This document shows, one piece after another, positions 1,327 to 61,281 of a DNA stretch of 64,000 nucleotides; position 1 is the first letter of the stretch, and every line of letters begins with the position of its first letter. Location of the stretch: the NCBI GenBank assembly GCA_902574205.1, contig CACGMS010000002.1, forward strand, positions 22,746 through 86,745, given 5' to 3'. The notes beneath the pieces were generated by a model. That model made no database searches, was not told the origin of the DNA, and saw nothing but the letters and a program-made list of their open reading frames with translations. This DNA is from an uncultured Candidatus Hydrogenedens sp. Lineage in GTDB: Bacteria; Myxococcota; UBA4151. Made by a program: the position numbers and the translations under genes.

Positions 1327-3675
1327 ATGCTGCGTCCTGCGGGGCTCTCGCTCCTTACTTTAGTCATCGCATTTAGCGTTGATGCCGAGGCTCAGTCCTC
1401 GGTCAAAGAGGGTTTGCGTACGGTTTCGGGGATGGCGGATGAGGTCAGCGGTCGAGCGCAGTTTATCGAGCAGCAGTTCCGCAAGAAGTCGATGGGTGTA
1501 GAAGAACGTGGTCGTAAAGCTCGGCTAGAAAACGGCGAGGTTTTGTTTTTGCTCAAAGACTACCGCAACGCTGCGGTTGTTCTTTTTGATCTCGTTGAAG
1601 ACCCTAAGCTTAAGAATGACAAACGGTATGCTGACGCCGTTTATTTTTTGGCTGAGTCATTGTTTCAAGATGGCAACGGCTCGGCGGCTCGTATTTACTT
1701 TAAGCGTTTGGTTGAAGCAGGGGCATCCCGTCATCTGACCCCCTCTATCCTGCGACTGATAGAGATAGCGGGCTCGCGTGCAGAGTTTGATGAGGTCGGT
1801 AAAGCGTTCAAGGCCTATCAAAAGGCGAGTGGTGGTCGGATTCCGCCGCAGGTCGATTATTTTTATGGAAAGTCGTTGATTCACGGTGGTGATTATGCGG
1901 CCGCTATCGAGCGCCTCAAGCGCTCTGCTGTTGAGGGGCCTTACCGTCATCAGTCGACGTATGCGACTGGTGTGGCGTTGGCCGCTTTGGGTAAACTCAA
2001 CGATGCGGCAGAAATGTTCGACTCTTTGCTGAAGTTTGTTCCTTCGACCGACGCTCAGAAAGAAATACGAGAACTTACCCACCTTGCCCGCGGACGAGTC
2101 TACTACGAAATTGGTGAAATCGGTGCGAGTATCGATGCCTATCAAAGCATTGATCACCGTTCGAAGTATTTCGATGAGATGTTGTTCGAAATTACATGGG
2201 CATACGTCAAAAGCGCTGAAGAAAAAGACGACGAAGACGATAAGAATACGCAATACAAAAAGGCGGTGCGGGCGGTTGAGATTTTACTTGCCAGTAATCC
2301 GCATTCGCCGGTTGTTCCTGAGGCGAAGGTTTTGCTTGGAAACCTGCACTTGCGCCTTAAGCAGTATGGACTGGCGGTCAAAGCATTTGACCAGGTGGTG
2401 AAGGACTACGAGCCGGGGCATGAGGAATTGCGACGGATTATTCGCGAGCGTGGTGATCCCATGCGGTATTTCCGCGAGATTATTGCGACCGGATTGGACA
2501 AGTTATCAGCAGAAAGCATGTTGCCGCCAGTTGCTTTGGATTGGGCTCGCTCTGACGGTGATCTGGACGGTGCTGTTCGTTTGTTCACCGAGCTTGAGCG
2601 CGGTGAGCGCGATTTAGCAGAAGCCGATCAGTTGATTGAAAAGATTCTTAGTCGCATTGAAGGTGAACGCCGAATTAACATGTTTCCGACCCTTGCCGAC
2701 CAACAAGGTCGAGCGGTTGAGGTTGGCGCTTTGGCTGCTGATTGTGAGCGTCGGTTGCTTGATTTGGAAACCCGCATCCTGCGTGAGCAGGGCTTGAATA
2801 CCGAGCAGTTGAGCGCGTTGCGTGCTGAGCGTCTACGGCTTCAGGCTCAGGTCGATAAGCTACCACCGACACTCAAGGCTCGAACGGAGCGAGTGGCGTC
2901 GGTCACGCGTCGGCTGGGTGATTTGAAGCAGCGTTTGTTCCGGCTGACGCTTGAGTTAAAAGGGTTTAAAAAGACGATCGCTGCGGTCGATCAGTACGTC
3001 GCAGGGCGTCGACAAAAAGGGAACCTGAGCCGTGAGGAGCTTGGATTCTTCCAGGTTAATGTGCCGGTGATTCGCGATATGATTATTGATATGGAGCGTA
3101 TTGCGCAGCGCCTCAAAGCTGAAATTGAGAGCGAGGTTTCGGGGGTTGGTGCTGGTGCCGGCAGTGATGAATTTGCGTTACGTGCTGAATTTCGCCAAGC
3201 GCTCGCTAGAGAGCGCGACGCCGCCACTCAGTTGAGGGCGCGATTGACTGGCGAAAATCTCACCGACATACGCAATCTTGATGCCGTTCGGCAGCGTGTG
3301 GCTCGAGCACAGCAACAAGTGGATAAGGTCTTGCGAGAACTTGAGACTGTAGTCGCTAACGAGGCGGGCAACATAAGAGGTCGCGTGATGGTGGAGCAAG
3401 CTCGTTTGAGGGGGCTTCGAGCAGAAGAGGAGGCCTTAGCGAGGCAGGCTGAGCGTGGAGCGATCGGCGCCGTAAATGCGACGCTGAGCAACGTGAGTAA
3501 CAAGTTCTATCAAATTATTCGCAACGCAGACGTTGGTAAAATCGATGTGGCTTGGGAGCAGAAAGAAACAGAAACCAAAGGGATTACTAAGCTGGGTCGA
3601 GCAAAAGAACGAGAGATGTCTCGTATTCGAGAGCAGTTTGACGAAGCTTTAGGCGGTGAGGGGGCTAGCAAGTGA
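1327..3675 (+). CDS. Periplasmic TPR-repeat protein with a long central coiled-coil (GltD/GltE-type candidate).
   Basis: 782-aa ORF. N-terminal signal peptide (MLRPAGLSLLTLVIAFSVDAEA). TPR-like helical repeats in the N-terminal half and heptad-rich segments from about aa 400 to 780. Its stop overlaps the next start (GTGA at 3672-3675). Confidence 0.7.
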   Translation: MLRPAGLSLLTLVIAFSVDAEAQSSVKEGLRTVSGMADEVSGRAQFIEQQFRKKSMGVEERGRKARLENGEVLFLLKDYRNAAVVLFDLVEDPKLKNDKRYADAVYFLAESLFQDGNGSAARIYFKRLVEAGASRHLTPSILRLIEIAGSRAEFDEVGKAFKAYQKASGGRIPPQVDYFYGKSLIHGGDYAAAIERLKRSAVEGPYRHQSTYATGVALAALGKLNDAAEMFDSLLKFVPSTDAQKEIRELTHLARGRVYYEIGEIGASIDAYQSIDHRSKYFDEMLFEITWAYVKSAEEKDDEDDKNTQYKKAVRAVEILLASNPHSPVVPEAKVLLGNLHLRLKQYGLAVKAFDQVVKDYEPGHEELRRIIRERGDPMRYFREIIATGLDKLSAESMLPPVALDWARSDGDLDGAVRLFTELERGERDLAEADQLIEKILSRIEGERRINMFPTLADQQGRAVEVGALAADCERRLLDLETRILREQGLNTEQLSALRAERLRLQAQVDKLPPTLKARTERVASVTRRLGDLKQRLFRLTLELKGFKKTIAAVDQYVAGRRQKGNLSREELGFFQVNVPVIRDMIIDMERIAQRLKAEIESEVSGVGAGAGSDEFALRAEFRQALARERDAATQLRARLTGENLTDIRNLDAVRQRVARAQQQVDKVLRELETVVANEAGNIRGRVMVEQARLRGLRAEEEALARQAERGAIGAVNATLSNVSNKFYQIIRNADVGKIDVAWEQKETETKGITKLGRAKEREMSRIREQFDEALGGEGASK

Positions 3676-6600
3676 CGCGTGGACTAACGCTGGCACTCGG
3701 TTTCTTTTTAGCCGCCCAGGTTGTTGCTCAGGGTCAGCCGGATACAGCCAAGCAATCGGAAGACGCTGAACCAGCACCAGCGAAAGCCGGGTCGACAGAC
3801 TCAAAGGCAGCAGAGCAACCATCAAATGATGATCCGCCAGAGGCGGGAGCCGCTGTGGCTGAGGCGCAGCAAAAGACGCCAGAGCAGTTAGCGAAAGAGA
3901 AAGCCAAAAAAGAATTTGAAGAGACCGTTGCTCGCTTCAAAAAGGTCTCTGATGAGTTCAATGCTGAGATTATGGCGACGATCAAGCGCAAGCGAGATGC
4001 TCGCATGCGCCGCATCGATATCGATTTTGAACAGCGTATCGGCGAGTTAGAGCGGCGTGAATCCGAGCGACGTAAAGGTGCAATTGAAGCATTTGAGCGC
4101 TTTGTGAGTCGCTATGCTTATGATGCCGAATATTCACCTCAAGCGATGTTTCGATTGGCTGAACTCTACTTTGAGCAAGCTAAATACGACTACAATGATG
4201 CCGATGAGGAGTTTTCTAGGCAGCTTGAATTGTTTGAGCAGAAAAAGATTGGCAAAGAGCCCGATGCGCCGGTTTTGGATTTGGCTAAGAGCATTAAGTT
4301 GTACGAGACAATCCTCAAGCGCTTTCCAAAGTTCGAACAAAACGACGGTGTTCAATATCTCCTAGCGTTTTGTTTAGAGGAGACCGGCGAATTTGAGCGC
4401 AGCCTGTCGAATTATGAAGGCTTGGTCGCTAACTACCCCGACAGTAAGTTTGTACCTGAAGTCTGGTTGCGTATCGGTGAAAATCATTTCACTGAAGATC
4501 GGTTATGCGAAGCGCTTGATGCTTATCGTCGGGTACTCAACAATCCCGAGTCAGCTTTGTACGATAAGGCACTCTACAAAGTCGCGTGGACGCACTATCG
4601 CCTCGATCGTTTTGATGCGGCGTACAAGCGCTTCATCGAGTTGATCGATTTTTCGGATAAAAAAGCTGAAGAAACCGGTGAGAGTGGATCAGACCTTAGG
4701 AAAGAGGCGTTGCAATACGTCGCTGTTGCTGCCGTTGAACAGGGGTGGGGGCGGCCTGCGACGGGCGAAGAGTTAGATCAGTGTAAAGCGGTTGTAGCTC
4801 AAGACGAGTTGTACGACGAAAAACAGGCTGAGTTGATGGATGAGTATGATGCCAAGGGGATCACGCCACCAGAAGTCTCAGCTGGTGACCGTTTGGAGCA
4901 GATGTTCGCTGCGGTGGGTGGGCGTAGCTACCAACGTGAAGTGTATTTAGAGGTGGCTAAGGTCCTGTTCGACCAAGCCGCATGGCAGAAGTATACGCCG
5001 ATCGCTAAGCGGGTGATCGAGCTTGACCCTATGCACCCGGATAATCCGAACGTGGCGATGAATATTATTGCTGCTTATGACCAACTGGGTCGCGAGAAGC
5101 TCGCTGAGGGCGCTGCTGCGCGTGAGGCATTGTTTACGACTTATGGTCCGGGTACCGAGTGGCAAGAGGCGAACAAAAATCGCCCTTCGGTGATTCGAAA
5201 GGCGATGAAGCTGGCTCAAGACGCTTTGATTTCCTCGGCCTTGTTTCGACTCGACCTTGCCCAGAAATACTTCCAGGAAGAGAAGGTCGCTTTAGCCTCT
5301 GAAGAAGCTCGAGTTTCTGCGCAGATGCTTTCTGACTACATCGAGCGATTTCCTTATGACCCAAATCTCTACGAGTACAACTATTACCTAGGTATTGGTT
5401 ATACAATGTCGGTGCAGTTTCTTAAGGCAGCCGACGTCTTTGAGTTGGTACGCGACGATAAGAAGAATAGTAAATATCGCGAGGATGCGGCTTACCGTGC
5501 GTTCTTGAACTTGCAGGCCGAGGTCGATTCGCAAACTCAAAAAGGTACGTTGCCTGAGCCGCCACCGCTAGCGGATACTCCGCAGGAGATTCCTCGCCTT
5601 TTGGTGCGTTTGATCGACGCGTCGATGAGGTACATCAAATCAAGTCCAAACACCGAAGATACACCGCGTTTCTACTTTAATGCAGCGACAATTTATGCCC
5701 AATACTCACACAAGTCGAAAGCCGATAAATGGTACCGAAAACTGATCGATACCTTCCCTGAGTCGGAAGGGGCGGTGGATGCTGCTCGATGGGTGCTCAA
5801 TGAGTACTCTGCTACAGAAGACTGGAAGAACGTTGAGGCCTGGTGTCGCCGTATGCTCAAGATTGGCGTCGGTAAAGACAACGAAGAATTCAAAGAGCAG
5901 ATGAGCAAAAGCGCTGCCGGTGCTGTGTATAAGCAAGCCGTCGCTGCGTTTGGTAAAAAGGAATTCCAACTGGCGCATGACGAGTTTTTGCGCTTGGTCA
6001 AGGAGGACCCGAAGAATCAGTTTGCAGCTAAGGCGCTGTATTCAGCAGCTCAGTCAATGGCTGAACTTAAGCGCTTTTTGTCGGCCGGTCAGCTTTATGA
6101 GCGAGTCTTCAAAGAGTACCCAGAAGATAAAGATCTCGCTGCAAAAGCATTATTTAATGTTGCATCGACGGCCTATGAGGGCTTTGAGTTCGATCGCGCC
6201 ATCTCATTGTATTTGAAATTGGTGTCCGATTACAAAGATTTCCCCGATCGAGCCGATGCGCTCTACAACGCTGCTGTTGCGCTACAGAGCACCGAACAGT
6301 TCAAGCGCGCCGCGCTGTTGTTTCAGAAATACACCAAGCTGTTTAAAGATCGGCCTGATGTACCTGAGGTGTTTTTCAATTCGGCTTTGGTTTGGGAGCA
6401 GGCGAAAGACGATCGCCGCATGAAACGAACATTTAATGAGTTTATTCGTAAGTACGGCAGTAAGAAAGAACAAGGCGGGCGTGTCGTTCAAATCTATTCG
6501 AAGTTTAGCGACCAATTGTGGGACGAGTTGGTGACTTTGAAATCGAAGCCGCCGAAAAGCAGGGCTCAGCGCCGGCGGTGGTCTAAATCGGTCAAGAATG

Positions 6601-7640
6601 CGCGAAAGAAAGTCGACCGATTTGTTGATAAAACGCTGGATGAATACAAAAAACGAGGTTTTGCACCGCAAACGATTGAGGCAGCTTATGCTGCTAAGGC
6701 GCATTTTCGTAAACTCGAAGCTGAATTCGAAGAGTACGCGGCGCTCGATTTTGGTGTGCAGGCACGAAAAGATGTTGAGCTTGCAAAGAAGCTTCAAAAG
6801 CGCATCAAAGAGAAGTTTGAATGGGCGAACAATCTTGAGAAAAAGTACCTCGATATCTTCCAGTATCTGACCTTTGATTGGACCTTGGCTGCATCGTATC
6901 GAATTGGTTCGATCTGGGAGAATTTTGCCGAGAAACTCTACAATGCGCCAGTGCCGAGACAGTTTCGTAATGACGACATTATGATGGATGAGTGGAAGGT
7001 TTTGCTTGAGCAGCAAGCCGAGCCATTTGAGCAGCGTGCGGTGCAAAAGTATGGCGACCTCATCAAAGAGGCGCGCAAGCGGAAGTTCCGCAACATGTGG
7101 ACGAAAAAGGCACTTCAGAGTTTGAATCGTTATGCGCGAGACGAATGGCCGATCGAAAAAGAAGCAATTACGAGTGGTCTTGAGGCGTTGTTGCCTGGTG
7201 ACTTGTTCGCTCAGCCCGCAGCTTATCGAAAGCCGCCACCACCGCCGCCGGAACCCAAAGACAAGGGCGAAGAGAAGCCTGAGGATAAGGGCGAAGAGAA
7301 GTCTGAGGACAAGGGTGAAGAGAAGCCTGAGGATAAGGGCGAAGAGAAGTCTGAGGACAAGGGTGAAGAGAAGCCTGAGGATAAGGGCGAAGAGAAGTCT
7401 GAGGACAAGGGTGAAGAGAAGCCTGAGGATAAGGGCGAAGAGAAGTCTGAGGACAAGGGTGAAGAGAAAGCTGAGGACAAGGGTGAAGAGAAAGCTGAGG
7501 ATATGGTGGAAAATCAACCCGCCGTCGATGTTCAGCCGTCGGATGTGCCTAGCCCGGACCAAGTAGAAGCCGACCAAAAATCCGCCGAAGAGAAATCGGA
7601 TCAAGCGCCACCAGCCGATAGCGATGAGGAGGACAAATGA
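3672..7640 (+). CDS. Large secreted TPR-repeat protein (1322 aa) with a C-terminal acidic (DKGEEK[P/S/A]E)x10 repeat tail.
   Basis: GTG start overlaps the upstream stop. Signal peptide MTRGLTLALGFFLAAQVVAQG. Multiple TPR-like repeats with the Y/W/F-A-L pattern. A 240-bp perfect tandem repeat sits at the 3' end. Its stop overlaps the next ATG (ATGA at 7637). Confidence 0.75.
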   Translation: MTRGLTLALGFFLAAQVVAQGQPDTAKQSEDAEPAPAKAGSTDSKAAEQPSNDDPPEAGAAVAEAQQKTPEQLAKEKAKKEFEETVARFKKVSDEFNAEIMATIKRKRDARMRRIDIDFEQRIGELERRESERRKGAIEAFERFVSRYAYDAEYSPQAMFRLAELYFEQAKYDYNDADEEFSRQLELFEQKKIGKEPDAPVLDLAKSIKLYETILKRFPKFEQNDGVQYLLAFCLEETGEFERSLSNYEGLVANYPDSKFVPEVWLRIGENHFTEDRLCEALDAYRRVLNNPESALYDKALYKVAWTHYRLDRFDAAYKRFIELIDFSDKKAEETGESGSDLRKEALQYVAVAAVEQGWGRPATGEELDQCKAVVAQDELYDEKQAELMDEYDAKGITPPEVSAGDRLEQMFAAVGGRSYQREVYLEVAKVLFDQAAWQKYTPIAKRVIELDPMHPDNPNVAMNIIAAYDQLGREKLAEGAAAREALFTTYGPGTEWQEANKNRPSVIRKAMKLAQDALISSALFRLDLAQKYFQEEKVALASEEARVSAQMLSDYIERFPYDPNLYEYNYYLGIGYTMSVQFLKAADVFELVRDDKKNSKYREDAAYRAFLNLQAEVDSQTQKGTLPEPPPLADTPQEIPRLLVRLIDASMRYIKSSPNTEDTPRFYFNAATIYAQYSHKSKADKWYRKLIDTFPESEGAVDAARWVLNEYSATEDWKNVEAWCRRMLKIGVGKDNEEFKEQMSKSAAGAVYKQAVAAFGKKEFQLAHDEFLRLVKEDPKNQFAAKALYSAAQSMAELKRFLSAGQLYERVFKEYPEDKDLAAKALFNVASTAYEGFEFDRAISLYLKLVSDYKDFPDRADALYNAAVALQSTEQFKRAALLFQKYTKLFKDRPDVPEVFFNSALVWEQAKDDRRMKRTFNEFIRKYGSKKEQGGRVVQIYSKFSDQLWDELVTLKSKPPKSRAQRRRWSKSVKNARKKVDRFVDKTLDEYKKRGFAPQTIEAAYAAKAHFRKLEAEFEEYAALDFGVQARKDVELAKKLQKRIKEKFEWANNLEKKYLDIFQYLTFDWTLAASYRIGSIWENFAEKLYNAPVPRQFRNDDIMMDEWKVLLEQQAEPFEQRAVQKYGDLIKEARKRKFRNMWTKKALQSLNRYARDEWPIEKEAITSGLEALLPGDLFAQPAAYRKPPPPPPEPKDKGEEKPEDKGEEKSEDKGEEKPEDKGEEKSEDKGEEKPEDKGEEKSEDKGEEKPEDKGEEKSEDKGEEKAEDKGEEKAEDMVENQPAVDVQPSDVPSPDQVEADQKSAEEKSDQAPPADSDEEDK
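7260..7499 (+). repeat. In-frame tandem DNA repeat: 24-bp unit x10, with strict 48-bp super-period. Encodes DKGEEKPE/DKGEEKSE alternation.
   Basis: Units gacaagggYgaagagaagYctgag / gataagggcgaagagaagtctgag alternate. U3 to U8 are three perfect 48-bp copies. The last two units carry aaagct (KAE). Confidence 0.92.
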
Positions 7641-9589
7641 AACGTGTCGTACTTTTCATGATCCTCGGTGCTTCGTGTGCCTCACCGAAACCTGCCCAGC
7701 CTGAACCGGTTGTCTTTGATGAGGCGCCAGTAATGGAGCCTGAAGCCGGCCCGGCTGAGCCTGTTGAGGCGGGTTTTACACCGGATGCAGCGGCAGACGC
7801 AGGTGAGATCGTTGTTCCGGATGCAGCGGTCGATGCTGGTTCGGTGCTTCCTGATGCGGGTACTGTCGACGCAGGGCGTTTGGTTGAGCCTTTGTTGCCC
7901 GATGAGGCCCTAAAAGCGCGCTTTGAAAAAGCTCTAGACCAAGCGCTTGATGACCCGAAAGCTGCGGAGTCTGAGTTTGATGCGATCGCTGCTGTGGCAC
8001 CCAACTTCTATTTTGCGCATTACAATGCTGCGCTGTGTCGTTTGAGACAGGGTGATAAACAAGCAGGCATGGCTCGATTGCAGTCTGTGCATGACCAGTT
8101 TGGTTCGGTTTTTCATGGCGCAACAGAAGCGCTTGCTTGGGCAAAGTTTCGCGATGGCGATAAAGAAGGCGCACAGTCCCTTCTAAGGGGCGCGATGAAT
8201 GATCACCCTCGTGTTCTTGATTTGCGAAACGCGTACGGTCGCATGTTGCTTGAAGTTGGTCGTTACGAAGAGGCGGCTGCGCTATCGATGAAAACTCTTA
8301 AGAAAGACGAAGTAAATGTCTCTGCGATGCAGGTTCTAGGTTGGTCGTTTTGTAAGCGTGAAAAGATGGGGCTGTGCCTTCTCGTGCTCGGGAACGCGTT
8401 GAAAGTTCCTGGTGAAGAAGCGAACGGGATGACCAATTACCTAGCGGCTTTAGCGTACCTAAAATATGCGAAAGGTGCTCAGAAGTTAACAGCTGAAGCG
8501 CGCGTTCGCCGCGCTCATGGGTATTTGGAAAAGGCAGCCGCAGGCTTGCCAGATAAGCCAGAGGTACTGATTAATTATGCTCGCGTTTTGCTCGATCGCG
8601 GCGACCCTCAGCAGGCCTATAAGTTAAGTCGAAGAGCCACGGTTCTGCGGCCGGACTTAATCGAGGGTTGGATGCTCAAGGCTGTCGCTGAGCGCGATAA
8701 GGGTGACTATGCCGCAAGTCGAACGACCTTTTTGAAGATTCTCAACGAGTATCCAGAACAGTATTCGGTGCTTTATAATTTGGGTATTTTGTATCTCGAT
8801 CACGGCATGAAAAAGGTCGAGGGACAAGAGTTGTGTCCAGATGTCTCGATCGACGACATGAAGCAAGAAGTGGGATCGGATTTGTTTGACGGTGTCGCGG
8901 TCAAGCACGTCGACAAGACGATGGTCGACAAACTGCGCCGATTGCGTCAGGCGACGAGTTACCTTGAGCGGTTTCGTAAGAGTACGGAGCTCGATAATGA
9001 GCGCTCGATCGAAGTGGAGAAACAGATCCGCGCAGCGAATAAGGCCATTCGTAGCGAGAGTAAGAAACGCGCGCGGAACATCAAGCGTGCCAAGCGAGAA
9101 AAGAAAAAGGCAGAGCGGCGCAAAAAGCGGATGGAGCGCGAAGCCAAGAAAAAAGCTGCTGAGGAAAAGAAAGCCGCTGAGGAAAAGGCTGCTGCTGAAG
9201 CGCAGGGCGCTGCTGTAAGTGGAGAAGCTGACGGTTCATCGCAGGTTGAGTCGACGTCTTCGAAGGATAACGCGAACACGGACGCTGATGCGCCTGTTGC
9301 TGAGCCGGTGCCAACGCCAGAGACCGCAGCGGGAGCGCCGCGAGCGAACGCCGGCGAAGGCGAAGAAAAGGGCGAAGAAAAGGGCGACGAAAAGAGCGAA
9401 GAAAAGGGCGAAGAAAAGAGCGACGAAAAGAGCGACGAAAAGAGCGACGAAAATTCGTCTGAGCAAACTAAGCCTGCGTCGGAATCCAAATCTGATGATG
9501 AATCGCAGTCTTCTGCTTCGGAAGATCAGCAGCAAGCCGAAGCTGAGAATGAAGAACCTTCTGATGGTTCGGAGCGCGAAGAGAAATGA
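7637..9589 (+). CDS. TPR-repeat lipoprotein (650 aa) with a Lys-rich coiled-coil segment and an acidic EEKGE/DEKSD repeat tail.
   Basis: N-terminus MKRVVLFMILGASC has signal and lipobox-like features. TPR-like repeats at aa 120-400. KRAKREKKKAERRKKRMEREAKKKAAEEKKAAEEKAAAEA helix. 15-bp repeats at 9352-9455. Coupled by ATGA at both ends. Confidence 0.72.
   Translation: MKRVVLFMILGASCASPKPAQPEPVVFDEAPVMEPEAGPAEPVEAGFTPDAAADAGEIVVPDAAVDAGSVLPDAGTVDAGRLVEPLLPDEALKARFEKALDQALDDPKAAESEFDAIAAVAPNFYFAHYNAALCRLRQGDKQAGMARLQSVHDQFGSVFHGATEALAWAKFRDGDKEGAQSLLRGAMNDHPRVLDLRNAYGRMLLEVGRYEEAAALSMKTLKKDEVNVSAMQVLGWSFCKREKMGLCLLVLGNALKVPGEEANGMTNYLAALAYLKYAKGAQKLTAEARVRRAHGYLEKAAAGLPDKPEVLINYARVLLDRGDPQQAYKLSRRATVLRPDLIEGWMLKAVAERDKGDYAASRTTFLKILNEYPEQYSVLYNLGILYLDHGMKKVEGQELCPDVSIDDMKQEVGSDLFDGVAVKHVDKTMVDKLRRLRQATSYLERFRKSTELDNERSIEVEKQIRAANKAIRSESKKRARNIKRAKREKKKAERRKKRMEREAKKKAAEEKKAAEEKAAAEAQGAAVSGEADGSSQVESTSSKDNANTDADAPVAEPVPTPETAAGAPRANAGEGEEKGEEKGDEKSEEKGEEKSDEKSDEKSDENSSEQTKPASESKSDDESQSSASEDQQQAEAENEEPSDGSEREEK
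9352..9455 (+). repeat. Imperfect 15-bp in-frame tandem repeat (about 7 units) encoding (E/D)EK(G/S)(E/D).
   Basis: Units are gaagaaaagggcgaa / gacgaaaagagcgaa / gacgaaaagagcgac variants. Confidence 0.7.
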
Positions 9590-9660
9590 TGATCGACTTC
9601 TCGTTAATTTCGAACCCTTGCGCTCAACTGAAGCGTGTGTACCATGCGGTAGGGGAGCGT

Positions 9661-9918
9661 ATGATGCGAGTGAAGCAGCCAGGGTGGCTACGATTGCGTT
9701 GGGCTGGCCTCGCGGTCCTGGCCGTTCTAATGTTTGGCTCGACACCAGCGTATGCGAAAAAGTTGGTTATCTCAGAAGCTTTTGAAATTACTGGGAAAAT
9801 ACAGCGACCTCAGGCGATGTATATCCTCCAGCGACAAAAGCTAAATCTCAAGGGTCTTCAACTTCGCCGGAGTCTAATTCCCAAGCTCTTAGAAAGTATG
9901 CGCAAGCCGCCACTTTGA
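9661..9918 (+). CDS. Small secreted hypothetical protein (about 85 aa).
   Basis: In the 9586-9918 ORF, the internal start ATG 9661 (after GGGGAG) gives the signal peptide MMRVKQPGWLRLRWAGLAVLAVLMFGSTPAYA. No recognisable domain. Confidence 0.3.
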   Translation: MMRVKQPGWLRLRWAGLAVLAVLMFGSTPAYAKKLVISEAFEITGKIQRPQAMYILQRQKLNLKGLQLRRSLIPKLLESMRKPPL

Positions 9919-10020
9919 CGGCTTGCCACACAAAAGAAAGTTAACTAACAACCCTCTTCAGATAATTGTGTGGTCCAAAATCTTGGGTCACTGAGGACAA
10001 GAGACATACAGGAGGTTCTC

Positions 10021-10671
10021 ATGTCGGTAGTTGCCGAGTTTTACAAACAGGGTGGTACTTGGATGCATCCCATCGCATTCGTGTCGGTGGTGGTGGTCGC
10101 GGTTTGTGCGGAGCGGATTTATTTCCTCTGGTTCCGTTACAACCTAAATGCTCACAGTTTCATGGGTCAGATTCAAAAGCTGATCATGGAAAACAGTGTC
10201 GATCGGGCGATCAAGCTGTGCAATGCTGAGCAGCATGCTGCGTTGCCGAGGATCGTGAAATCCGGTCTGACTCGCGCCAACAAAGGTGAGCAAGAAATCA
10301 CAAACGCTGTCGAAGAGATGGTGCTTGAGATGACCCCGCTCATCAGCAAGCGGATGGCATGGCTTCCGACGTTGGCGTCGTTGGCAACGATGCTCGGTCT
10401 TCTTGGTACGATTATCGGTATGATCGAAGCGTTCGCCGCCGTGGCGAAGGCAGCGCCTGATCAGAAGCAGGAAATGCTTGCCGGTGCTATTGCTATCGCG
10501 ATGAACACCACGGCGTTTGGTCTGATGGTCGCGATCCCGACCATGTTCCTTAGTCTGATTCTCAACACGTTGGTGAAGAAGATTATGGATGAAATTGATC
10601 AATACAGCATCAAGCTGGTTAATATGCTTGTCCTGCGTGGTCAGGGTGGGACCAACCCGCTCAATCGCTAG
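10021..10671 (+). CDS. MotA/TolQ/ExbB-family proton channel (AglR/TolQ-like).
   Basis: AGGAGG lies 6 nt upstream of ATG 10021, so the ORF-track start at 9970 is unlikely. About 216 aa with three TM helices and the conserved TolQ/ExbB C-terminal TM pair (LASLATMLGLLGTIIGMIEAF...AIAMNTTAFGLMVAIPTMF). Confidence 0.82.
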   Translation: MSVVAEFYKQGGTWMHPIAFVSVVVVAVCAERIYFLWFRYNLNAHSFMGQIQKLIMENSVDRAIKLCNAEQHAALPRIVKSGLTRANKGEQEITNAVEEMVLEMTPLISKRMAWLPTLASLATMLGLLGTIIGMIEAFAAVAKAAPDQKQEMLAGAIAIAMNTTAFGLMVAIPTMFLSLILNTLVKKIMDEIDQYSIKLVNMLVLRGQGGTNPLNR

Positions 10672-10751
10672 GAAGTGAATTGAGTGAATTGAGTCCTGTC
10701 GCTGGCGACGGTGGCTCTCTTATGGTTGTCTGAATATGTTGGAGTGACAGC

Positions 10752-11522
10752 GTGGCACGCAAAAAGATCAAGGAAGAAGTCCCTGAGCCAAACTTGGTTC
10801 CTGTGATGAACCTGGTGATGTTGTTGATCCCGTTCTTGTTGATGGCTTCGGCCTTCTTCGAAGTGGCGATCATTAACGTCAGTGCGCCGAAGGTAGCTTC
10901 TGGGCCGAGCTCGGATGATACCCCTAAAGATGATAAGCCGAAACTCAATCTGACCGTTGTGGTTAGTGACGGTGGTTTCAAGATTTGTGCGTATGGTGGT
11001 TGTCTTGGACCGGGCGGGGTTCGAGCTGAGGGTGGCGCCGCAAACGGTCCTGGGGCAGGTGGTAAGCCAACCGTTGCAACGACGCGCTTCTCGCATGAGT
11101 GCGTCGATAAAACTGCAACGCCTGCTCCTCCGGCATGTACCTTGCCGTTGCTTGCTTCGTGTCGGTCTGACGGCAGCGCACCTCATGATTTGCCGTATCC
11201 CGAGCGTTTGGCGAAAAATATGGATACGAACGGTGGCAGTCGCAAGGACTGCGATGGTGACGGTAAAGCCGATGTAGATATCTGCAAGGGTGAAGCAACA
11301 GACTGCAATTATCAGAATTATGACTACGCTGCATTGCGCAAGCATCTAGCTAAACTCAAGGCGGGAGCTGAGCAGGAGCGTAAGGTGATGATCATGGCCG
11401 ACGAAGGTATTCCCTTTGAGGTAGTCGTTGGGGTTATGGATATCGCTCGTGATATGAAGACCGAGAGCGGGGAGACGAAAGAGTTGTTCCCCGACGTGGT
11501 CCTTTCGCCGGGCTTCCAGTAG
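10752..11522 (+). CDS. ExbD/TolR-family protein (AglQ/AglS-like) with a roughly 110-aa Gly/Cys-rich periplasmic insertion.
   Basis: GTG start after GGAGTGA. Basic N-terminus plus TM (NLVPVMNLVMLLIPFLLMASAFF) as in ExbD. The C-terminal ExbD core is RKVMIMADEGIPFEVVVGVMDIARDMK. An 8-Cys Gly-rich insert lies between the first beta-strand and the core. Confidence 0.7.
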   Translation: MARKKIKEEVPEPNLVPVMNLVMLLIPFLLMASAFFEVAIINVSAPKVASGPSSDDTPKDDKPKLNLTVVVSDGGFKICAYGGCLGPGGVRAEGGAANGPGAGGKPTVATTRFSHECVDKTATPAPPACTLPLLASCRSDGSAPHDLPYPERLAKNMDTNGGSRKDCDGDGKADVDICKGEATDCNYQNYDYAALRKHLAKLKAGAEQERKVMIMADEGIPFEVVVGVMDIARDMKTESGETKELFPDVVLSPGFQ

Positions 11523-11541
11523 TCCGAAAGGAAGGTAAATC

Positions 11542-12144
11542 GTGACCGAAGAGCAAAATGTCGAGTCGGTTGAAGAGCAGAAGGCCGTTGAGTCGGTCGA
11601 CGGTGCTTATCCTGGATGGGATGAGCAACAACCGCCAGCGAAGAAGAAGAAACAGGCAGGAGGTATTGGTGACGAAGAGGTCCCGATGCCGAATATTACG
11701 TCGCTACTCGACGCGCTGTTCATTATTCTCGTGTTCCTCCTGAAAAGCTATTCAACCAACCCAGTTTCGGTGACTCAGAGCGCGAGTCTGAAGTTAGCGG
11801 CTTCCGCTGCGCAGCTCAGTCCGAAAGATGCATTGCCGGTGATTATTGATAAAAAAGGTATCACCGTCGACGGTATCGAGACGATGAAGTTTGATGATAA
11901 GGGTATGGTTCCGGCGGATCAGGTTGCCGGTCACATTATTGCGCCTTTGTCGCAGGCATTGCGTGATCAAGCTGAGAAGCAGCGTAAGCTGGCTCAGTTG
12001 AACACCGATGTCAGTTTTAAAGGTGAGTTGATTCTTATTTGCGATAAGGATTTACCATATAAAATCCTGCGCGATATCTTAATGACGGCTGGCGATGCGG
12101 AGTATGGTAATTTCCGTTTCGCTGTGATTAAGGCTGCGGGCTGA
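11542..12144 (+). CDS. ExbD/TolR-family protein (second paralogue).
   Basis: GTG start after AGGAAGG. Acidic N-terminal extension, then TM (ITSLLDALFIILVFLLK). The periplasmic ExbD-like core is GELILICDKDLPYKILRDILMTAGDAEYGNFRFAV. Confidence 0.7.
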   Translation: MTEEQNVESVEEQKAVESVDGAYPGWDEQQPPAKKKKQAGGIGDEEVPMPNITSLLDALFIILVFLLKSYSTNPVSVTQSASLKLAASAAQLSPKDALPVIIDKKGITVDGIETMKFDDKGMVPADQVAGHIIAPLSQALRDQAEKQRKLAQLNTDVSFKGELILICDKDLPYKILRDILMTAGDAEYGNFRFAVIKAAG

Positions 12145-12175: not shown

Positions 12176-13534
12176 ATGGGCACGAAGGTTCTCAAGGTAG
12201 CGGTCACTCAAGGTAAAAAAATCCTTGAGCAGAAACTCATCAGTAGCCGAACTTCGGTTACCGTGGGGACTGCGGCATCGAATACATTGCATGTAAGCGG
12301 TGAAGGCTTACCGGATACTTATAATCTGTTTGAGGTTGTTGGCGGAAAGTATTGCCTGAACTTCACGGAGAAGATGACGGGCAAGGTCAATGTTGGTGGT
12401 GGTCAGCTTGATTTTGAAACTGCCCGACAACAGACCGGTGTGCGTAAGCGCGGTAATGAATACCAAATGGTACTCAGCGAGGCGTCCAAAGGTGCAATCG
12501 AGTTGGGTGCTGGCGGTGTCCGCATCATCTTTCAGTTTGTCGATGCGCCCGCTGATGCGGTGCCTGCAAAACTGGCAGATTCGACGTATATGCCGCCTCT
12601 GCAGCGCTTGGATCGAGTGTTTTGGGGTTGTTTGGTTGTCTCTGCGTTGCTGCATACGGGTGGGGTGATCGGTGCGATGAACGCGCCGCCACCGCCGAAG
12701 CGCAAGATCACCGAGTTGCCTGATCGTTTTGCTAAGATGATCATCAAGAAGCCGCCAAAAGTTAAGCCGAAAGAAGAAAAGAAAAAAGAGCCCAAGAAAG
12801 ACGGTGAGAAGAAGCCGTCCGAGAAAAAATCCGAAAAGAAAGCTGAGCCGAAACCAGAGAAAAAGCCGGCTAAAAAAGCTCAAACAGCTGCCAAGAAAGA
12901 AGAGCGTCGTGCCCAGGCTCAACAAGCCGTCCGCCAGAGCGCTGTCTTCAAGGCTTTAGCGATCGCTACGTCCGGCGGCGGCGCTGGCGTCGTGTTTCAG
13001 GCAGACGGTGACCCTCGAACTGATGTTAGCGCAGCGTTAGCGGCTTCGGGCGGAGCGGGTATCGCCGCTGCGGATGGAGGGCCCGGTGGGCCTGCTGTTC
13101 GAGGTGGCTCCGGTGGCGGAGGGCCTGTTGGTATTGGTGAAGTGGGCGGCGTGGCCGTCGGCGGCGGTGGGGGTAAGATAGCCAAGCGAAAAGGCCCGAA
13201 AATCCGCGTACGTATGAAGATGAGTAAGCCGAAGATTGACGACGGCGAGCTGGACGGAAAATCAGTTGCTCGTAAAATTCGGGCTCGAAAGCGTGCGTTC
13301 CAGGCTTGTTATGAGCGAGAACTCAAACGTAATCCGTCGCTCAAAGGTAAGCTGGTCTTAGAAGTTACGGTTGGCGAGAATGGTCGTGTCGCCGATATCT
13401 TTGTCGCCGATAACGCGCTCAATAACGCTGTGGCTAACTGCATCAAAGGCAAGATGCGTTCGATTCGTTTCCCGAAACCAGAGGGTGGCGAAGCAACGTT
13501 CTCCTATCCGTTCGTCTTTGCATCGAGTGGGTAG
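12176..13534 (+). CDS. Bitopic GltG(PglI)/GltJ(AgmX)-like protein. It has a cytoplasmic FHA-like domain, one TM, a Lys/Pro/Glu-rich linker, a Gly-rich segment and a C-terminal TonB-C-like AgmX/PglI-type domain.
   Basis: The N-terminal 135 aa carry a degenerate FHA pattern (VTVGTAASNTLHV...GGKYCLNFTEKMTGKVNVGG). TM is VFWGCLVVSALLHTGGVIGAM. Linker is PPPPKRK...KPKEEKKKEPKKDGEKKPSEKKSEKKAEPKPEKKPAKK. C-terminus is FQACYERELKRNPSLKGKLVLEVTVGENGRVADIFV...CIKGKMRSIRFPKPEGGEATFSYPFVF, which resembles the AgmX/PglI C-terminal (TonB-C-like) family. Confidence 0.65.
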   Translation: MGTKVLKVAVTQGKKILEQKLISSRTSVTVGTAASNTLHVSGEGLPDTYNLFEVVGGKYCLNFTEKMTGKVNVGGGQLDFETARQQTGVRKRGNEYQMVLSEASKGAIELGAGGVRIIFQFVDAPADAVPAKLADSTYMPPLQRLDRVFWGCLVVSALLHTGGVIGAMNAPPPPKRKITELPDRFAKMIIKKPPKVKPKEEKKKEPKKDGEKKPSEKKSEKKAEPKPEKKPAKKAQTAAKKEERRAQAQQAVRQSAVFKALAIATSGGGAGVVFQADGDPRTDVSAALAASGGAGIAAADGGPGGPAVRGGSGGGGPVGIGEVGGVAVGGGGGKIAKRKGPKIRVRMKMSKPKIDDGELDGKSVARKIRARKRAFQACYERELKRNPSLKGKLVLEVTVGENGRVADIFVADNALNNAVANCIKGKMRSIRFPKPEGGEATFSYPFVFASSG

Positions 13535-13536
13535 TT

Positions 13537-14463
13537 ATGCAGCGGCTGGATCGTGCGGGGATTGAAGTCCTTCTCGAGACTGAACAGTTCAAGAGTTGGT
13601 TTGCCGAACTTAACGGTCTCAATCATCGCCTCGAACTTTTAGAATCCTCGATTGAGCGCGCTGCGGAGGCGTGCGCAGAAGCCGGCTTCCGATGCACCTA
13701 TTGGCAAGAAGCTGCTGAAGAGGCGTTGTTGCGGTCAGCCGACCTGGGTAATACCTGCCATAATCTGCGTACGGAGATCGCTCGCTTAGAGAACGAAGCT
13801 TTTAGACGGCTTGCAGAGTTTGAGAGCGTTCGGGATGAGGTCACCGATCTGTGGATCAAAATTACAGCGATCGAGCATCGTTGTGATGATCATCCGGACG
13901 AAGCAACTCGCGTAAGGTCTCGAGCTCGCTATCAAGGCGAGTTGAAAAAACTTCGAGCAGCCTATGCATCCAGTAATGAGCGTAAAGAAGCACTTTGGCA
14001 GGCCGAAGAGCTGCTTTGGATGCAAGTGGCGGAGCAGACCCTCATGGTGCCCGAGATCGAAGTTCGTTCTCAGCGTTTAGAAGAGCGCTATGGACAGTTG
14101 ATGCACCGCGTTGAGGCGTTACAAGAGCGGGAGAAGCGTGCGCAACAAACGCTGGCTGATGAGCGTGAGGAACTGGTTGAAGTTCAGAAGCAAATGGCAA
14201 AATTGCGCTCTGCGGCAAAGATGTCGTTTTCCTGTGTTTGCCATGAAAATTTTCTCTATTGGCCGATTGGTGACGATGCGAAACTTGCTCTGGTTGTCGC
14301 CCTCAATTCGAATCCGACGGATTACAATATTGAGGTGAAGAGCGGGCAATTGTATCAATGTGAAACCGAGAGAGGCGTCCGGTATCTTGAGCCCGTCAGT
14401 GTCGGTACGTCGGTTGTGGAAGAAGATGAGCGTCTTATTCGGTTCTTTGAGGAGGTCGCATGA
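13537..14463 (+). CDS. Cytoplasmic coiled-coil hypothetical protein (308 aa).
   Basis: Starts 3 bp after the upstream stop. Heptad-rich, no TM or signal peptide. Its stop overlaps the next ATG (ATGA at 14460). Confidence 0.6.
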   Translation: MQRLDRAGIEVLLETEQFKSWFAELNGLNHRLELLESSIERAAEACAEAGFRCTYWQEAAEEALLRSADLGNTCHNLRTEIARLENEAFRRLAEFESVRDEVTDLWIKITAIEHRCDDHPDEATRVRSRARYQGELKKLRAAYASSNERKEALWQAEELLWMQVAEQTLMVPEIEVRSQRLEERYGQLMHRVEALQEREKRAQQTLADEREELVEVQKQMAKLRSAAKMSFSCVCHENFLYWPIGDDAKLALVVALNSNPTDYNIEVKSGQLYQCETERGVRYLEPVSVGTSVVEEDERLIRFFEEVA

Positions 14464-14918
14464 GTGAGGCTTATGATCGGGTCGAAGCGCTTCAGGCCTC
14501 GCCTTTGTTTAACGATCTTTTGCCGTTGGAAAAACAATATCTTGCGGATTTAGCAGTCCATCGCCAACTCGGAGCAGGCGACATCCTTTTTGAGGAAGGT
14601 GATGTTGGTGATGCGATGTATGTCGTGGTCAGTGGTGAGTTGGGCGTTGAGGTTGGCGAGAATGGTGTAAATCACGAAATAGCGACTTTAGTGGCGCCTG
14701 ATTTTGTGGGTGAAATGGCGTTGATTGATAAACGGCCTAGGGCAGCTCGCGTTCGCGCAAAATCGGATGCGGTTTTGTTAGCGATCAGCCATGCGAACAT
14801 TTACTCTTTTGCCCGTGTTCATCGAAGCGGTTTTACTTGGTTAGTGGTCAATATTGCGAAAAACCTGGCCAGCCGCTTACGTGCGATGAACGACGCTGCT
14901 TCGGGTGTGGCCGAGTGA
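14460..14918 (+). CDS. Standalone cyclic-nucleotide-binding (CAP-family cNMP) domain protein with no HTH.
   Basis: GDILFEEGDVGDAMYVVVSGEL...FVGEMALIDKRPRAARVRA is the canonical cNMP-binding beta-roll with the phosphate-binding GE...R(A)A. Only 152 aa, so no effector domain is fused. Confidence 0.8.
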   Translation: MSEAYDRVEALQASPLFNDLLPLEKQYLADLAVHRQLGAGDILFEEGDVGDAMYVVVSGELGVEVGENGVNHEIATLVAPDFVGEMALIDKRPRAARVRAKSDAVLLAISHANIYSFARVHRSGFTWLVVNIAKNLASRLRAMNDAASGVAE

Positions 14919-15028: not shown

Positions 15029-16333
15029 GTGTTTGGAGCCTTTGATTTGTTCATGTTAATGAACCAAAACCGCTTGTTGGTAGCGGTCTTAGGCTTCGCG
15101 TTCGTCAGCGCGCCTGCGTACGCAGAAGGCGGCATCAAGCTCACCTCGGAAGCACGAATGCACCCGTTGGTGCAAACTGGGTTCGCATTCGATTCGAATC
15201 CGCACCGTGCTTCTGGCGATACAGCTAAAGGCGATGGGTTCTTTCTGGTTCAAGGCGGCTTTGAGTTGAGTGTACCTTCTGATCGGCTCGACGTCCGCAT
15301 GAACAATGTCATCAGTTACAACCACTATCTGGGGTTGATGGCGGATCCGAACACCGTGGGGGGGAATACGGCAGCGCTCTCGACGGTCAAGGGTGGTTCG
15401 GCACTCCAGTTGCTCGGCAATCGTAAGGGTAAACTGCGATGGGGGCTGGCTGGGAAGGTCAGTCGCCTTGATGAGCCAGAGCCCCTGAATCTGGGTATTC
15501 GGCAGGGGCGTTGGTCCAATGGTGTTGATACGTTCTTGGAGTGGCGCCCCAGTGGCGGTGCTTTGGGCGTCAAACCAGCAGCCAGTTTGGTGTATGATGC
15601 GTATGACGCGTCAGGTGGGGTAGGCGCAACGAAGCTCAATAAGGTCGCTCCGGGTCTGAGACTTGATTTTGACTGGCGCTTTCTCCCGCGGACGCAGTTC
15701 GTGATCAACAATCATTGGACATCGGTGACGTACGTAAACGACGAAGCGGCTAACGGTTACGCTGATCCTGTGAGTTCAGAACTGGGCGTTATGGGACAGT
15801 TTTCGCCGCGTCTTTCAGCGATCATTGCCGTGGGTTATTCGGGTAGTCAGTTTCTGACATCGGACAAGAATACGGACAACGCGACGAAAACGTTTTCTGG
15901 GCAAGCCGAGATTCGTTACGATGAACGACGAAAGGTGACCTGGCGATTAGGTTTGCGCCGTCGGCTGCTGCCCGTATCGGTTTTTGGCTTCATGGCGGAC
16001 AACAGTGCCTATGCGCGCTACTCTGAGAAGTATTTGGGCGGTCTGCGCGTGGTGACACAACTCAAGGCAAGCCTTCGTACATTTGGCGCGCAGACGTCTG
16101 CACAAGACGTCATCCAGATTGGTACGGGTGAAGCACGAGCAGATATCACCGCGAGCTTTGATGCAAACATTCTCTGGCAACCGCAGAAATGGTGGGTAGC
16201 TGGTTTGACGAATCGTTTTGAGTACTTCACCACCAATAGTGTGTTCAAGTCAGCCGGTATGGCAGGTGATTCGCTGATTAGTCCTGATTTTGGGCGTAAT
16301 CTAACCATGTTGGTGTTCGAAGCCAAGTACTGA
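15029..16333 (+). CDS. Outer-membrane beta-barrel protein (partner of the downstream short OPX protein).
   Basis: Signal peptide (LLVAVLGFAFVSAPAYA). Alternating amphipathic beta-strand pattern throughout. Ends ...LTMLVFEAKY with a terminal aromatic typical of OMP barrels. A start at 15053 or 15059 is also possible. TGATG overlap with the next gene. Confidence 0.7.
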   Translation: MFGAFDLFMLMNQNRLLVAVLGFAFVSAPAYAEGGIKLTSEARMHPLVQTGFAFDSNPHRASGDTAKGDGFFLVQGGFELSVPSDRLDVRMNNVISYNHYLGLMADPNTVGGNTAALSTVKGGSALQLLGNRKGKLRWGLAGKVSRLDEPEPLNLGIRQGRWSNGVDTFLEWRPSGGALGVKPAASLVYDAYDASGGVGATKLNKVAPGLRLDFDWRFLPRTQFVINNHWTSVTYVNDEAANGYADPVSSELGVMGQFSPRLSAIIAVGYSGSQFLTSDKNTDNATKTFSGQAEIRYDERRKVTWRLGLRRRLLPVSVFGFMADNSAYARYSEKYLGGLRVVTQLKASLRTFGAQTSAQDVIQIGTGEARADITASFDANILWQPQKWWVAGLTNRFEYFTTNSVFKSAGMAGDSLISPDFGRNLTMLVFEAKY

Positions 16334-16926: not shown

Positions 16927-16945
16927 TCGCTGAAAGGACTGGGTC

Positions 16946-17683: not shown

Positions 17684-17691
17684 AAGGTATC

Positions 17692-32245: not shown

Positions 32246-32247
32246 TT

Positions 32248-61205: not shown

Positions 61206-61281
61206 TGGAGCGGGACACGGGACTCGAACCCGCGACATCCAGCTTGGGAAGCTGGCACTCTACCAACTGAGTTAGTCCCGC
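61206..61281 (-). tRNA. tRNA-Gly (anticodon CCC), 76 nt including the encoded CCA.
   Basis: Reverse complement GCGGGACTAACTCAGTTGGTAGAGTGCCAGCTTCCCAAGCTGGATGTCGCGGGTTCGAGTCCCGTGTCCCGCTCCA folds as a canonical cloverleaf: 7-bp acceptor, D-arm ACTC/GAGT, anticodon stem CCAGC/GCTGG with loop TTCCCAA, T-arm GCGGG/CCCGT. Confidence 0.93.

Follow-up and report, generated by a model that had tools for sequence, protein, structure and literature searches.

An in-frame, length-variable tandem repeat in the predicted disordered tail of a GltD/AgmU-family protein from uncultured marine Myxococcota

The DNA studied here, called the window throughout, is a stretch of 64,000 nucleotides from contig CACGMS010000002.1 of an uncultured member of the Myxococcota. 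Within it, the gene for a large protein of the GltD/AgmU family carries close to its 3' end a tandem array of ten 24-bp units, which are translated in frame into a densely charged segment that is predicted to be disordered. In a sister lineage, genes that are identical or nearly identical outside the array hold either six or eight units. The explanation that we favour, to which we give a probability of about 60%, is that the array is an in-frame hypermutable minisatellite, that is, a variable number of tandem repeats (VNTR) locus, lying in a disordered tail, where it would build an acidic spacer of adjustable length that tethers a conserved terminal motif.

The gene and the parts of its tail are as follows:

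3672 to 7640, forward strand: GltD/AgmU-family gene encoding 1322 aa, with a Sec-type signal peptide, TPR and helical domains and a disordered tail (TPR families, homologues, AlphaFold2)
7212 to 7259, forward strand: lead-in rich in proline, QPAAYRKPPPPPPEPK, which joins the last folded helix to the array (aligned in every close relative)
7260 to 7499, forward strand: ten 24-bp units in tandem (hierarchy 12/24/48 bp) that encode (DKGEEK[P/S/A]E)x10 (repeat search, unit table, periodicity)
7500 to 7637, forward strand: conserved 46-aa C-terminal segment after the array (conserved across lineages where the array is not)

Anatomy of the array

The array is by far the strongest repeat that Tandem Repeats Finder (TRF) reports across the window. 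It was called at 7260-7501, with 10.1 copies at a period of 24 (score 365) and 5.0 copies at a period of 48 (96% matches, score 435). Reading of the sequence, TRF and a table of the units concur on ten 24-bp units in the frame of the open reading frame (ORF) at 3672..7640. Units U2, U4, U6 and U8 are exactly the same (GATAAGGGCGAAGAGAAGTCTGAG, encoding DKGEEKSE), as are U3, U5 and U7 (GACAAGGGTGAAGAGAAGCCTGAG, encoding DKGEEKPE); U1 lies 1 nt from U3, and the identical units U9 and U10, which encode DKGEEKAE, lie 2 nt from it. An alternation of CCT and TCT codons exchanges proline for serine, and the GAC/GAT and GGT/GGC alternations are synonymous. The original prediction, made from the sequence alone, had described U3 to U8 as three perfect copies of a 48-bp super-unit with synonymous ggc/ggt and gat/gac alternation, and the unit table agrees. 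Its formula for the encoded peptide, (DKGEEK[P/S]E)x10, was right about ten in-frame units but incomplete at position 7, which is P in four units, S in four and A in two. It had also put the array at the C-terminus of the protein; 46 residues (DMVENQPAVDVQPSDVPSPDQVEADQKSAEEKSDQAPPADSDEEDK*) come after it, which makes the array an internal linker before a conserved terminal segment.

Perfect 48-bp periodicity extends over 7269-7468, a stretch of 200 bp. The 24-bp unit is itself composed of two diverged 12-bp (4-aa) subunits with the pattern acidic-K-small-E, and this make-up of the 8-residue unit ties the array to the 12-bp arrays that are found in the gltD-like gene of one relative (L002) and in the tail of the neighbouring GltE-like protein. 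The array shows 0 differences in 152 periodic comparisons, and its third-position identity to any relative is just 47-54%, so the array in its present form arose well after the lineages split. Head-to-tail, near-identical units of a length that is a multiple of 3, inside an ORF, are what a coding VNTR consists of, and these observations support a recently homogenised or expanded tract that varies in length.

Copy number differs among near-identical genomes

Arrays were compared at eight loci, which were obtained by cluster look-ups and contig retrieval. In the sister lineage, L004 and L005 (from two European Nucleotide Archive assemblies) and L006 (from the Joint Genome Institute) match one another at 100.0% across 1217 codons (3651 nt) outside the array, and L008 differs from them by 1 mismatch in 2400 nt upstream. 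Written as strings of unit types, the array is E0-A-B-A-B'-T in L004 and L005 (6 units), E0-A-B-A-B-A-B'-T in L008 (8 units) and E0-A-B-A-B-A-B-T in L006 (8 units). These strings read as a stepwise series, in which one 48-bp super-unit was probably gained or lost and B' was then converted to B (4 nt). Genomes with 0-1 mismatches in the flanks accordingly differ in copy number, which is the behaviour that defines a VNTR. The same array was recovered from independent assemblies (L004 and L005; P0122 and P0127), and the k-mers of the sister-lineage arrays are all unique at k<=99, which rules out assembler noise.

Other relatives carry arrays of other kinds. Seven homogeneous DKGEEKSE units are present in L007, which comes from the same sample as L006 and is 89% identical in DNA. 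The nearest relative of the window, L003 (95.8% amino-acid and 82.4% nucleotide identity outside the array), carries roughly six degenerate units, among them 4-residue half-units; L001 also has degenerate units with 4-aa half-units, and L002 has a 12-bp SEEK array in place of the 24-bp units. Even among relatives with more than 90% protein identity, numbers and types of units differ. Together with the 0/152 periodic differences, this agrees with the recent expansion or contraction that had been proposed from the sequence. The comparison of copy number across related genomes, which had been named as the check, gave differences, and the opposite outcome, an identical array in all relatives, was not found. 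That copy number varies between strains, as had also been proposed, holds for the sister lineage, with 6 versus 8 units between identical flanks; the window's own lineage is represented by one contig. Strain-level relatives of that lineage were sought in a genome collection, which gave two loci only, at 86-88% identity, and in metagenomes, which gave three loci, all from the sister lineage. Within the 90%-identity cluster, the tail is spanned only by P0134/L003 (95.8% amino-acid identity), the other six members being short fragments.

Length differences also occur in a more distant sister clade, where an independent 21-bp repeat encoding EPGEKDD is present in 2 copies in P0004 and in 4 copies in P0148, within one 90%-identity cluster. 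The 2-copy version is length-stable in seven members, which fits the dependence of repeat instability on copy number (PMC3477136). Tails of other GltD-family proteins contain, at the same position, EPVTPAA in 4 copies and TAPAEGTE-like repeats (P0064; P0085). The end of GltD thus seems to be a hotspot of repeat birth in general.

The tail is predicted to be disordered and ends in a conserved segment

The composition of the array is extreme. Each 8-residue unit has four acidic and two basic residues; the fraction of charged residues is 0.75, the net charge per residue is -0.25 and kappa is about 0.01-0.03, whereas the folded body of the protein has a charged fraction of 0.32 and a net charge per residue of -0.01. 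Mean hydropathy is 0.18, far under the Uversky boundary of 0.50. An AlphaFold2 (AF2) run on residues 901-1322 with a 50-sequence alignment gave a pLDDT (predicted local distance difference test) score above 90 for the helical domain up to about residue 1160 and of 40-50 for the whole tail, and the array had no secondary structure (coil by DSSP). Well-mixed charges, low hydropathy and the lack of predicted secondary structure are the marks of a disordered polyampholyte linker. The original prediction had called the encoded tail an extreme polyampholyte and had named a disorder prediction as a check; charge statistics and AF2 support an extreme, well-mixed, net-acidic polyampholyte that is predicted to be disordered. 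A helical reading of the E/K repeat, as a TolA-like or single alpha-helix, was considered and ruled out, given the Gly and the Pro, Ser or Ala in each unit and the coil in the AF2 model; the GltE-like protein, unlike the GltD-like array, does have such an E/K helix, upstream of an array of its own.

Both sides of the array are conserved. The lead-in at 7212-7259 is kept in close relatives, and the terminal segment has the form QPAVDV[Q/T]PSDVP[S/T]PDQVEADQKSAEEKS...DEEDK. Across lineages, the amino-acid identity of this segment is 0.73-0.95 and its third-position identity is just 0.29-0.68, a combination that points to constraint at the protein level. The GAGGAG Shine-Dalgarno sequence of the gltE-like gene and the ATGA stop/start overlap with that gene also fall within the last codons of this segment.

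Among 118 family members, most have 0-30 residues past the last helical domain. Acidic tails of 114-164 residues are confined to the clade of the window (P0001-P0005, down to 53% identity), in which all five lineages have them; a few other family members have unrelated repeats in the tail.

A second array in the gltE-like gene and unit DNA shared between lineages

The gene directly downstream has a repeat array as well:

7637 to 9589, forward strand: gene for a GltE-like TPR lipoprotein, translationally coupled to gltD (NF033758 GltE at 1.6e-08, below cutoff)
9360 to 9453, forward strand: second in-frame array, of 12-bp units (GGC/AGC GAA/GAC GAA AAG, encoding [G/S][E/D]EK), about 8 copies (TRF period 12, 7.8 copies)

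In the GltE-like protein, an acidic disordered tail comes after a basic TolA-like helix. The array of this gene has 2 copies in L004 (8637-8660) and 5 in L005 (8637-8696) and L006, although L004 and L005 are identical in gltD. In L003, a TARA contig, the array (7434-7493) contains a scaffold gap of 100 N, and in L002 it consists of three SEEK units and six EGAPA units. A smaller 18-bp repeat (KAAEEK, 2.6 copies) lies at 9152-9198 in the basic TolA-like helix; L003 has three copies of it (KKAAEEKKAAEEKKAAEE), and this small repeat may vary too.

Unit DNA recurs across arrays and lineages. In L002, the same 12-nt unit TCGGAAGAGAAG (SEEK) fills the gltD array (about 9560-9700) and the gltE array (11595-11630), which are about 1.7 kb apart, suggesting exchange between both arrays or a common constraint at the nucleotide level. 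Window unit U2 is identical at 24/24 positions to units of L007, U1 is identical at 24/24 positions to a unit of L004 and L006, and the window, L003 and L004-L006 all share the gltE unit GGCGAAGAAAAG without a difference. Outside the array, the fraction of conserved residues encoded by the same codon in the window and in L001, L002, L003 or L007 is about 0.47-0.68 for D/E/K and 0.26-0.45 for G/S/P/A, and synonymous sites there appear to be close to saturation. Chance sharing was roughly estimated at about 0.007 per unit pair, uncorrected for roughly a dozen comparisons, and at ~0.01 when combined with the gltE array, so that the excess conservation of unit DNA across lineages is suggestive. 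Horizontal transfer of a larger block was ruled out, the immediate flanks being as diverged as the rest of the gene. The options that are left for the shared units are a constraint at the codon or mRNA level, conversion between arrays, or short-patch recombination seeded by the repeats.

This unusual conservation of unit DNA between lineages is one reason to ask whether the array might act as nucleic acid: by carrying an ORF in another frame or on the opposite strand, by folding as RNA, by containing an internal promoter, or by setting the pace of ribosomes before the coupled gltE start through its repeated, Shine-Dalgarno-like GAGGA motifs. Long open alternative frames do exist, and GAGGA is found at each unit junction by direct reading. 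Such frames are, however, expected in purine-rich repeats and are altered by each change of copy number or unit, and conservation in the flanks is clearly in the gltD frame. On these grounds the ORFs at 7132-7566 (forward), 7223-7480 (reverse) and 6282-7604 (reverse) were ruled out as by-products of the purine-rich repeat. At the array, no Rfam family matched, the fold z-score of -1.6 was not significant and the centroid structure was empty, and no promoter or terminator signals were found inside it. A role at the nucleic-acid level is, in our judgement, very improbable.

The shared units and the paired arrays also allow a bolder reading, which we regard as speculative and improbable: the acidic E-K-x-E arrays in the GltD-like and GltE-like tails might form a paired, selected "tuning module" peculiar to this marine clade, contingency-type loci that would adjust the reach or charge of a periplasmic force-transducing shaft. 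It would be consistent with unit DNA that is constrained or exchanged, with 24-nt and 12-nt units shared despite saturation, and with the TCGGAAGAGAAG unit common to both arrays of L002.

The host protein and its operon

The GltD-like gene starts with GTG, overlapping the upstream stop (GTGA), and on direct reading its N-terminus resembles a Sec signal peptide (MTRGLTLALGFFLAAQVVAQ/GQ). Several TPR families match the protein, among them the tol_pal_ybgF-type TPR at 1.3e-37. A homology search gave 192 homologues at E<=1e-10, all large TPR proteins, and where source names are given these point to Myxococcota/Deltaproteobacteria. Homologues from Pyxidicoccus, Hyalangium and Myxococcus are 30-32% identical over 82-84% of the query (E 1e-137 to 1e-155), and the NCBIfam models that name GltD gave no match at E <= 0.01. 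Myxococcus xanthus has four paralogues of the family (Glt, Nfs, G4, G5), and the Pyxidicoccus, Hyalangium and Myxococcus matches are not tied to one of them; the protein is therefore filed under the GltD/AgmU family, and gliding is not assigned as its function. Members of this family have a central TPR region with helical domains on either side and a disordered C-terminus (residues 1104-1197 in M. xanthus), and GltE of M. xanthus has been modelled on GltD's C-terminal domain (PMC11761067). The protein of the window has the corresponding architecture (secreted, about 1100-1300 aa, central TPR, flanking helical domains, disordered ends) and is probably a TPR scaffold of this family. Its location is most likely periplasmic. 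The original prediction had left the cell surface as an option, and nothing places the protein there; it has a Sec-type signal peptide, and the family is described as periplasmic. The nearest genomes are those of uncultured Myxococcota, assembled from metagenomes, together with marine and estuarine metagenome contigs, TARA among them.

The remaining genes of the operon are:

1327 to 3675, forward strand: gene for a GltC-like TPR protein (NF033756 GltC at 1.1e-10, below cutoff)
9586 to 9918, forward strand: small secreted GltF-like protein of 110 aa (motif IQ[KR]PQA.YILQR)
9970 to 12144, forward strand: motor genes, like AglR, AglQ and AglS (MotA/TolQ/ExbB-type at 9970-10671; ExbD/TolR-type at 10752-11522 and 11542-12144)
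12176 to 13534, forward strand: GltG-like protein whose transmembrane helix is joined by a basic, Lys/Pro-rich periplasmic linker to an AgmX/PglI (TonB-CTD-like) C-terminal domain

The order gltC-like, gltD-like, gltE-like, small GltF-like, MotA/TolQ, ExbD, ExbD, gltG-like is the same in L004 and L011, and successive genes overlap through GTGA or ATGA. The "core complex" gene set has been defined as gltC, D, E and G with aglR, Q and S (Luciano et al., PMC3169522), and counterparts of gltC, gltE, gltG and the aglR/Q/S-type motor genes are all linked to the gltD-like gene in the window. The GltG-like protein matches NF033760 at 8e-52 and, through its AgmX/PglI C-terminal domain, NF033768 with 94.5 bits against a cutoff of 40. 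The GltF-like protein keeps its position and sequence in distant clusters, and its motif IQ[KR]PQA.YILQR is common to a 93-aa gene of L012. By gene content and order, the operon would encode an Agl-Glt/Nfs-type envelope machine, driven by a TolQR-like motor, of uncultured marine Myxococcota. Residues about 185-245 of the GltG-like protein form a strongly basic Lys/Pro/Glu-rich linker (KKPPKVKPKEEKKKEPKKDGEKKPSEKKSEKKAEPKPEKK...) between its transmembrane helix and its TonB-CTD-like domain.

Upstream of the operon, a Roadblock/LC7-domain ORF (23-412), MglB-like at 23.6 bits against a cutoff of 23, is found, as it also is upstream in L011; it is adjoined by a gene (433-1320) for a secreted 295-aa protein of no known family with short acidic repeats (ADDADDADD..., TRF 709-757). 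Immediately downstream of the gltG-like gene, 13537-14918 encodes two candidate regulators of the machine, a 308-aa coiled-coil protein with weak SMC-like matches and a 152-aa protein with a cyclic-nucleotide-binding domain (PF00027 at 2.8e-20). Between the motility-type operon and a type II secretion cluster lie genes (16333-19935) for a Poly_export/SLBB polysaccharide export protein, an RmlA-type glucose-1-phosphate thymidylyltransferase and an ArnT/PMT-like glycosyltransferase. The secretion cluster was recognised at 22132-25487 (GspC of the "delta" type, 242 bits; GspD secretin, 459 bits), and its extent to about 30800 is an assumption, the family-library scan having covered genes up to 25490. 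Farther on, the ORF at 32230-34263 has a weak 18-bp in-frame repeat (34018-34059, 2.3 copies) in an acidic E-A-D/E-x-T stretch (…AEAEDNTEADETTEAT…), and a single tRNA gene (61209-61281, reverse strand, 67.5 bits) is the sole Rfam match in the window.

A proposed length-adjustable spacer and competing explanations

A minisatellite of near-identical 24/48-bp units would allow unequal recombination or replication slippage to add or remove whole units, and changes of whole units would preserve the reading frame, the 46-residue terminal segment and the coupling to gltE. The quantity that varies would be the length of a Gly/Pro-punctuated, well-mixed, net-acidic polyampholyte. As an unfolded segment, it would most likely serve as an extended, flexible spacer or tether, by which the terminal motif would be held off the folded helical C-terminal domain, the GltE docking region in the M. 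xanthus model. By a polymer estimate, an 8-residue unit adds about 3 nm of contour length and an 80-residue expanded coil spans several nanometres, a sizeable fraction of a periplasm that is a few tens of nanometres wide. A terminal segment that is conserved at the protein level only is what would be expected of a tethered motif. The repeat, its frame, the predicted disorder, the confinement to one clade and the length differences among near-identical genomes were observed; from these patterns we infer the periplasmic location, the spacer or tether function, the mutational mechanism and any effect of copy number on fitness.

Several observations weigh against this reading. The sequence of the array, and even its period, is not conserved across relatives, as is equally expected of neutral turnover. 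The short tails of most family members argue that a long tail is not needed for the core function of the family. In the AF2 model of residues 901-1322, the terminal motif does not dock in cis, and no partner was identified for it. Moreover, the arrays of the relatives all come from metagenome assemblies, in which part of the copy numbers could be collapsed; within the window array, with its 200-bp perfect stretch, all k-mers are unique only at k>=153; and at the strain level of the window's own lineage, the exact protein occurs on one contig only, the nearest relative being 82% identical in DNA.

The first two of these observations are also the core of the main and serious rival, neutral low-complexity expansion, which we consider rather unlikely. 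Under it, the tail would be dispensable and a by-product of slippage or recombination, selection would act only on the frame, for the sake of the terminal segment and the gltE coupling, and copy number would be meaningless. The free turnover of unit sequence, period and number among lineages, the absence of the tail in most family members and the independent, unrelated repeats in P0064 and P0085 all favour it. A GltD-mCherry fusion is functional in M. xanthus (PMC3169522); should the tag be at the C-terminus, as its name would imply, that end of the protein can accommodate a large addition. The rival accounts less well for an acidic tail of similar composition, 114-164 residues long, being kept in all five lineages of the clade to 53% identity, for the neighbouring GltE-like protein having acquired the same kind of E-K-x-E array, and for repeat-unit DNA being conserved between lineages above the level of synonymous sites elsewhere in the gene.

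The last observations bear on a narrower matter, whether the ten units of the window are a product of assembly, that is, whether a short-read assembler looped or collapsed the periodic tract, in which case the three perfect super-units would carry little biology. A k of at least 153 exceeds the values that common short-read metagenome assemblers usually use, as far as we know; a related gltE array broke a TARA scaffold (the gap in L003), and the protein rests on a single contig. On the other side, arrays of the same kind in the relatives, resolvable by assemblers (k 23-99), show real differences that are reproduced across independent assemblies, and a collapsing assembler would tend toward too few copies, not too many. 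We take an assembly product to be unlikely, though with a weight that makes the count of ten provisional: it needs read-level confirmation and would be certain only with k>=153 or long reads.

Charge suggests another role. Segments in which the fraction of charged residues is >=0.6 occur in 3/51 ORFs of the window, and all three are periplasmic Glt components, a restriction that we also count in favour of the spacer reading. Their charges are of opposite sign: -0.25 in the GltD tail, +0.33 in the GltE helix and +0.25 in the GltG linker. An electrostatic element could be imagined, in which the acidic array joins the basic GltE helix or GltG linker in a fuzzy complex, or binds Mg2+ or Ca2+ in a marine periplasm. 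The complementary signs, in proteins expected to form one periplasmic complex (complex model in PMC11761067), and the marine or estuarine origin of the relatives speak for it. However, L012 has the basic GltE helix and GltG linker even though its GltD tail is short and slightly basic, and charge pairing was for this reason not taken as the primary explanation; co-evolution of the acidic tail with the basic segments was likewise rejected as unsupported. The original prediction had offered cation binding as a role for the tail, which the unit does not bear out. On direct reading, DKGEEK[PSA]E contains neither of the calcium-binding motifs looked for (RTX GGxGxD, EF-hand DxDxDG), nor is any known cation-binding motif present. 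Interleaved Lys residues also cancel half of the acidic charge, and their alternation with acidic residues (kappa about 0.01-0.03) weakens the binding of polycations and metals alike. An electrostatic role seems to us improbable.

Discussion

The closest analogue of the array is the variable repeat of E. coli tolA, whose product spans the periplasm; that repeat has 13 imperfect 15/18-bp units and ranges from 8 to 16 copies in 234 isolates (Zhou, Michiels and Aertsen 2012, PMC3477136). It contracts in a RecA-dependent manner, at about 7e-5, and stress phenotypes change with its copy number (PMC3477136). Both cases concern an in-frame tandem repeat, in a charged low-complexity segment, within a TolQR-type envelope machine driven by the proton-motive force; in the machine described here, TolQR and TolA have their homologues in the Agl motor and GltG. 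The differences lie in the repeat and its host. The tolA units encode a Lys/Ala-rich, long alpha-helix, whereas the 24/48-bp units of the window encode an acidic, E/K-rich sequence with Gly and Pro/Ser that is predicted to be coil, and the tolA repeat resides in TolA itself, whereas the arrays reported here are in TPR scaffold proteins (GltD-like and GltE-like) and not in the TolA-like GltG.

With the Agl-Glt focal-adhesion machine of M. xanthus, the window shares the protein family and the operon partners, including a GltD with TPR, helical flanks and a predicted disordered C-terminus, and a GltE that docks on the GltD C-terminal domain and itself combines a TPR region with a long helix and a disordered end (PMC11761067). 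Unlike the protein of the window, Myxococcus-type homologues have just about 20-30 residues past the last aligned helix, and the long acidic, repeat-bearing tail appears to be specific to the marine clade of the window. No paper on tandem repeats or length polymorphism in Agl-Glt proteins was found in the literature.

Repeats with similar properties have been described in Borg elements, where perfect or near-perfect in-frame nucleotide repeats, of independent origin and rapid evolution, create new disordered regions in envelope and extracellular proteins. A K/E polyampholyte makes up one cluster of these repeats, secreted proteins are enriched for them, and homologues, TolA-like proteins included, have different repeats of similar composition (PMC9879509). 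Borgs are archaeal extrachromosomal elements, whereas the array is on a bacterial chromosome-type contig, in a defined motility-type operon. The (Glu-Pro)n/(Lys-Pro)n spacer of TonB offers a functional parallel, as a charged, proline-containing, non-globular periplasmic segment linking a functional element at the C-terminus to the remainder of the protein, and the GltG-like protein of the window has a TonB-like Lys/Pro linker. The TonB spacer is described as fairly rigid and of polyproline-II type, and to our knowledge it is not known as a near-perfect DNA repeat; with one Pro or Ser per 8 residues plus Gly, the array is expected to be a flexible coil instead.

Repeats that generate disordered regions of envelope proteins are thus already known, and the array is a hypervariable repeat of an ordinary kind in a new place. 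Only the pairing of the arrays and the conservation of their units across lineages go beyond the ordinary. For an uncultured marine group of Myxococcota, the locus offers a strain-resolving marker, and it also marks a place where short-read assemblies are unreliable. For the machine itself, the arrays amount to a series of natural length variants in two central periplasmic components, within disordered tails of a kind to which the M. xanthus model assigns no role (PMC11761067). Were copy number to matter for function, as in tolA, the alleles would offer a handle on the reach and flexibility that the periplasmic "shaft" needs.

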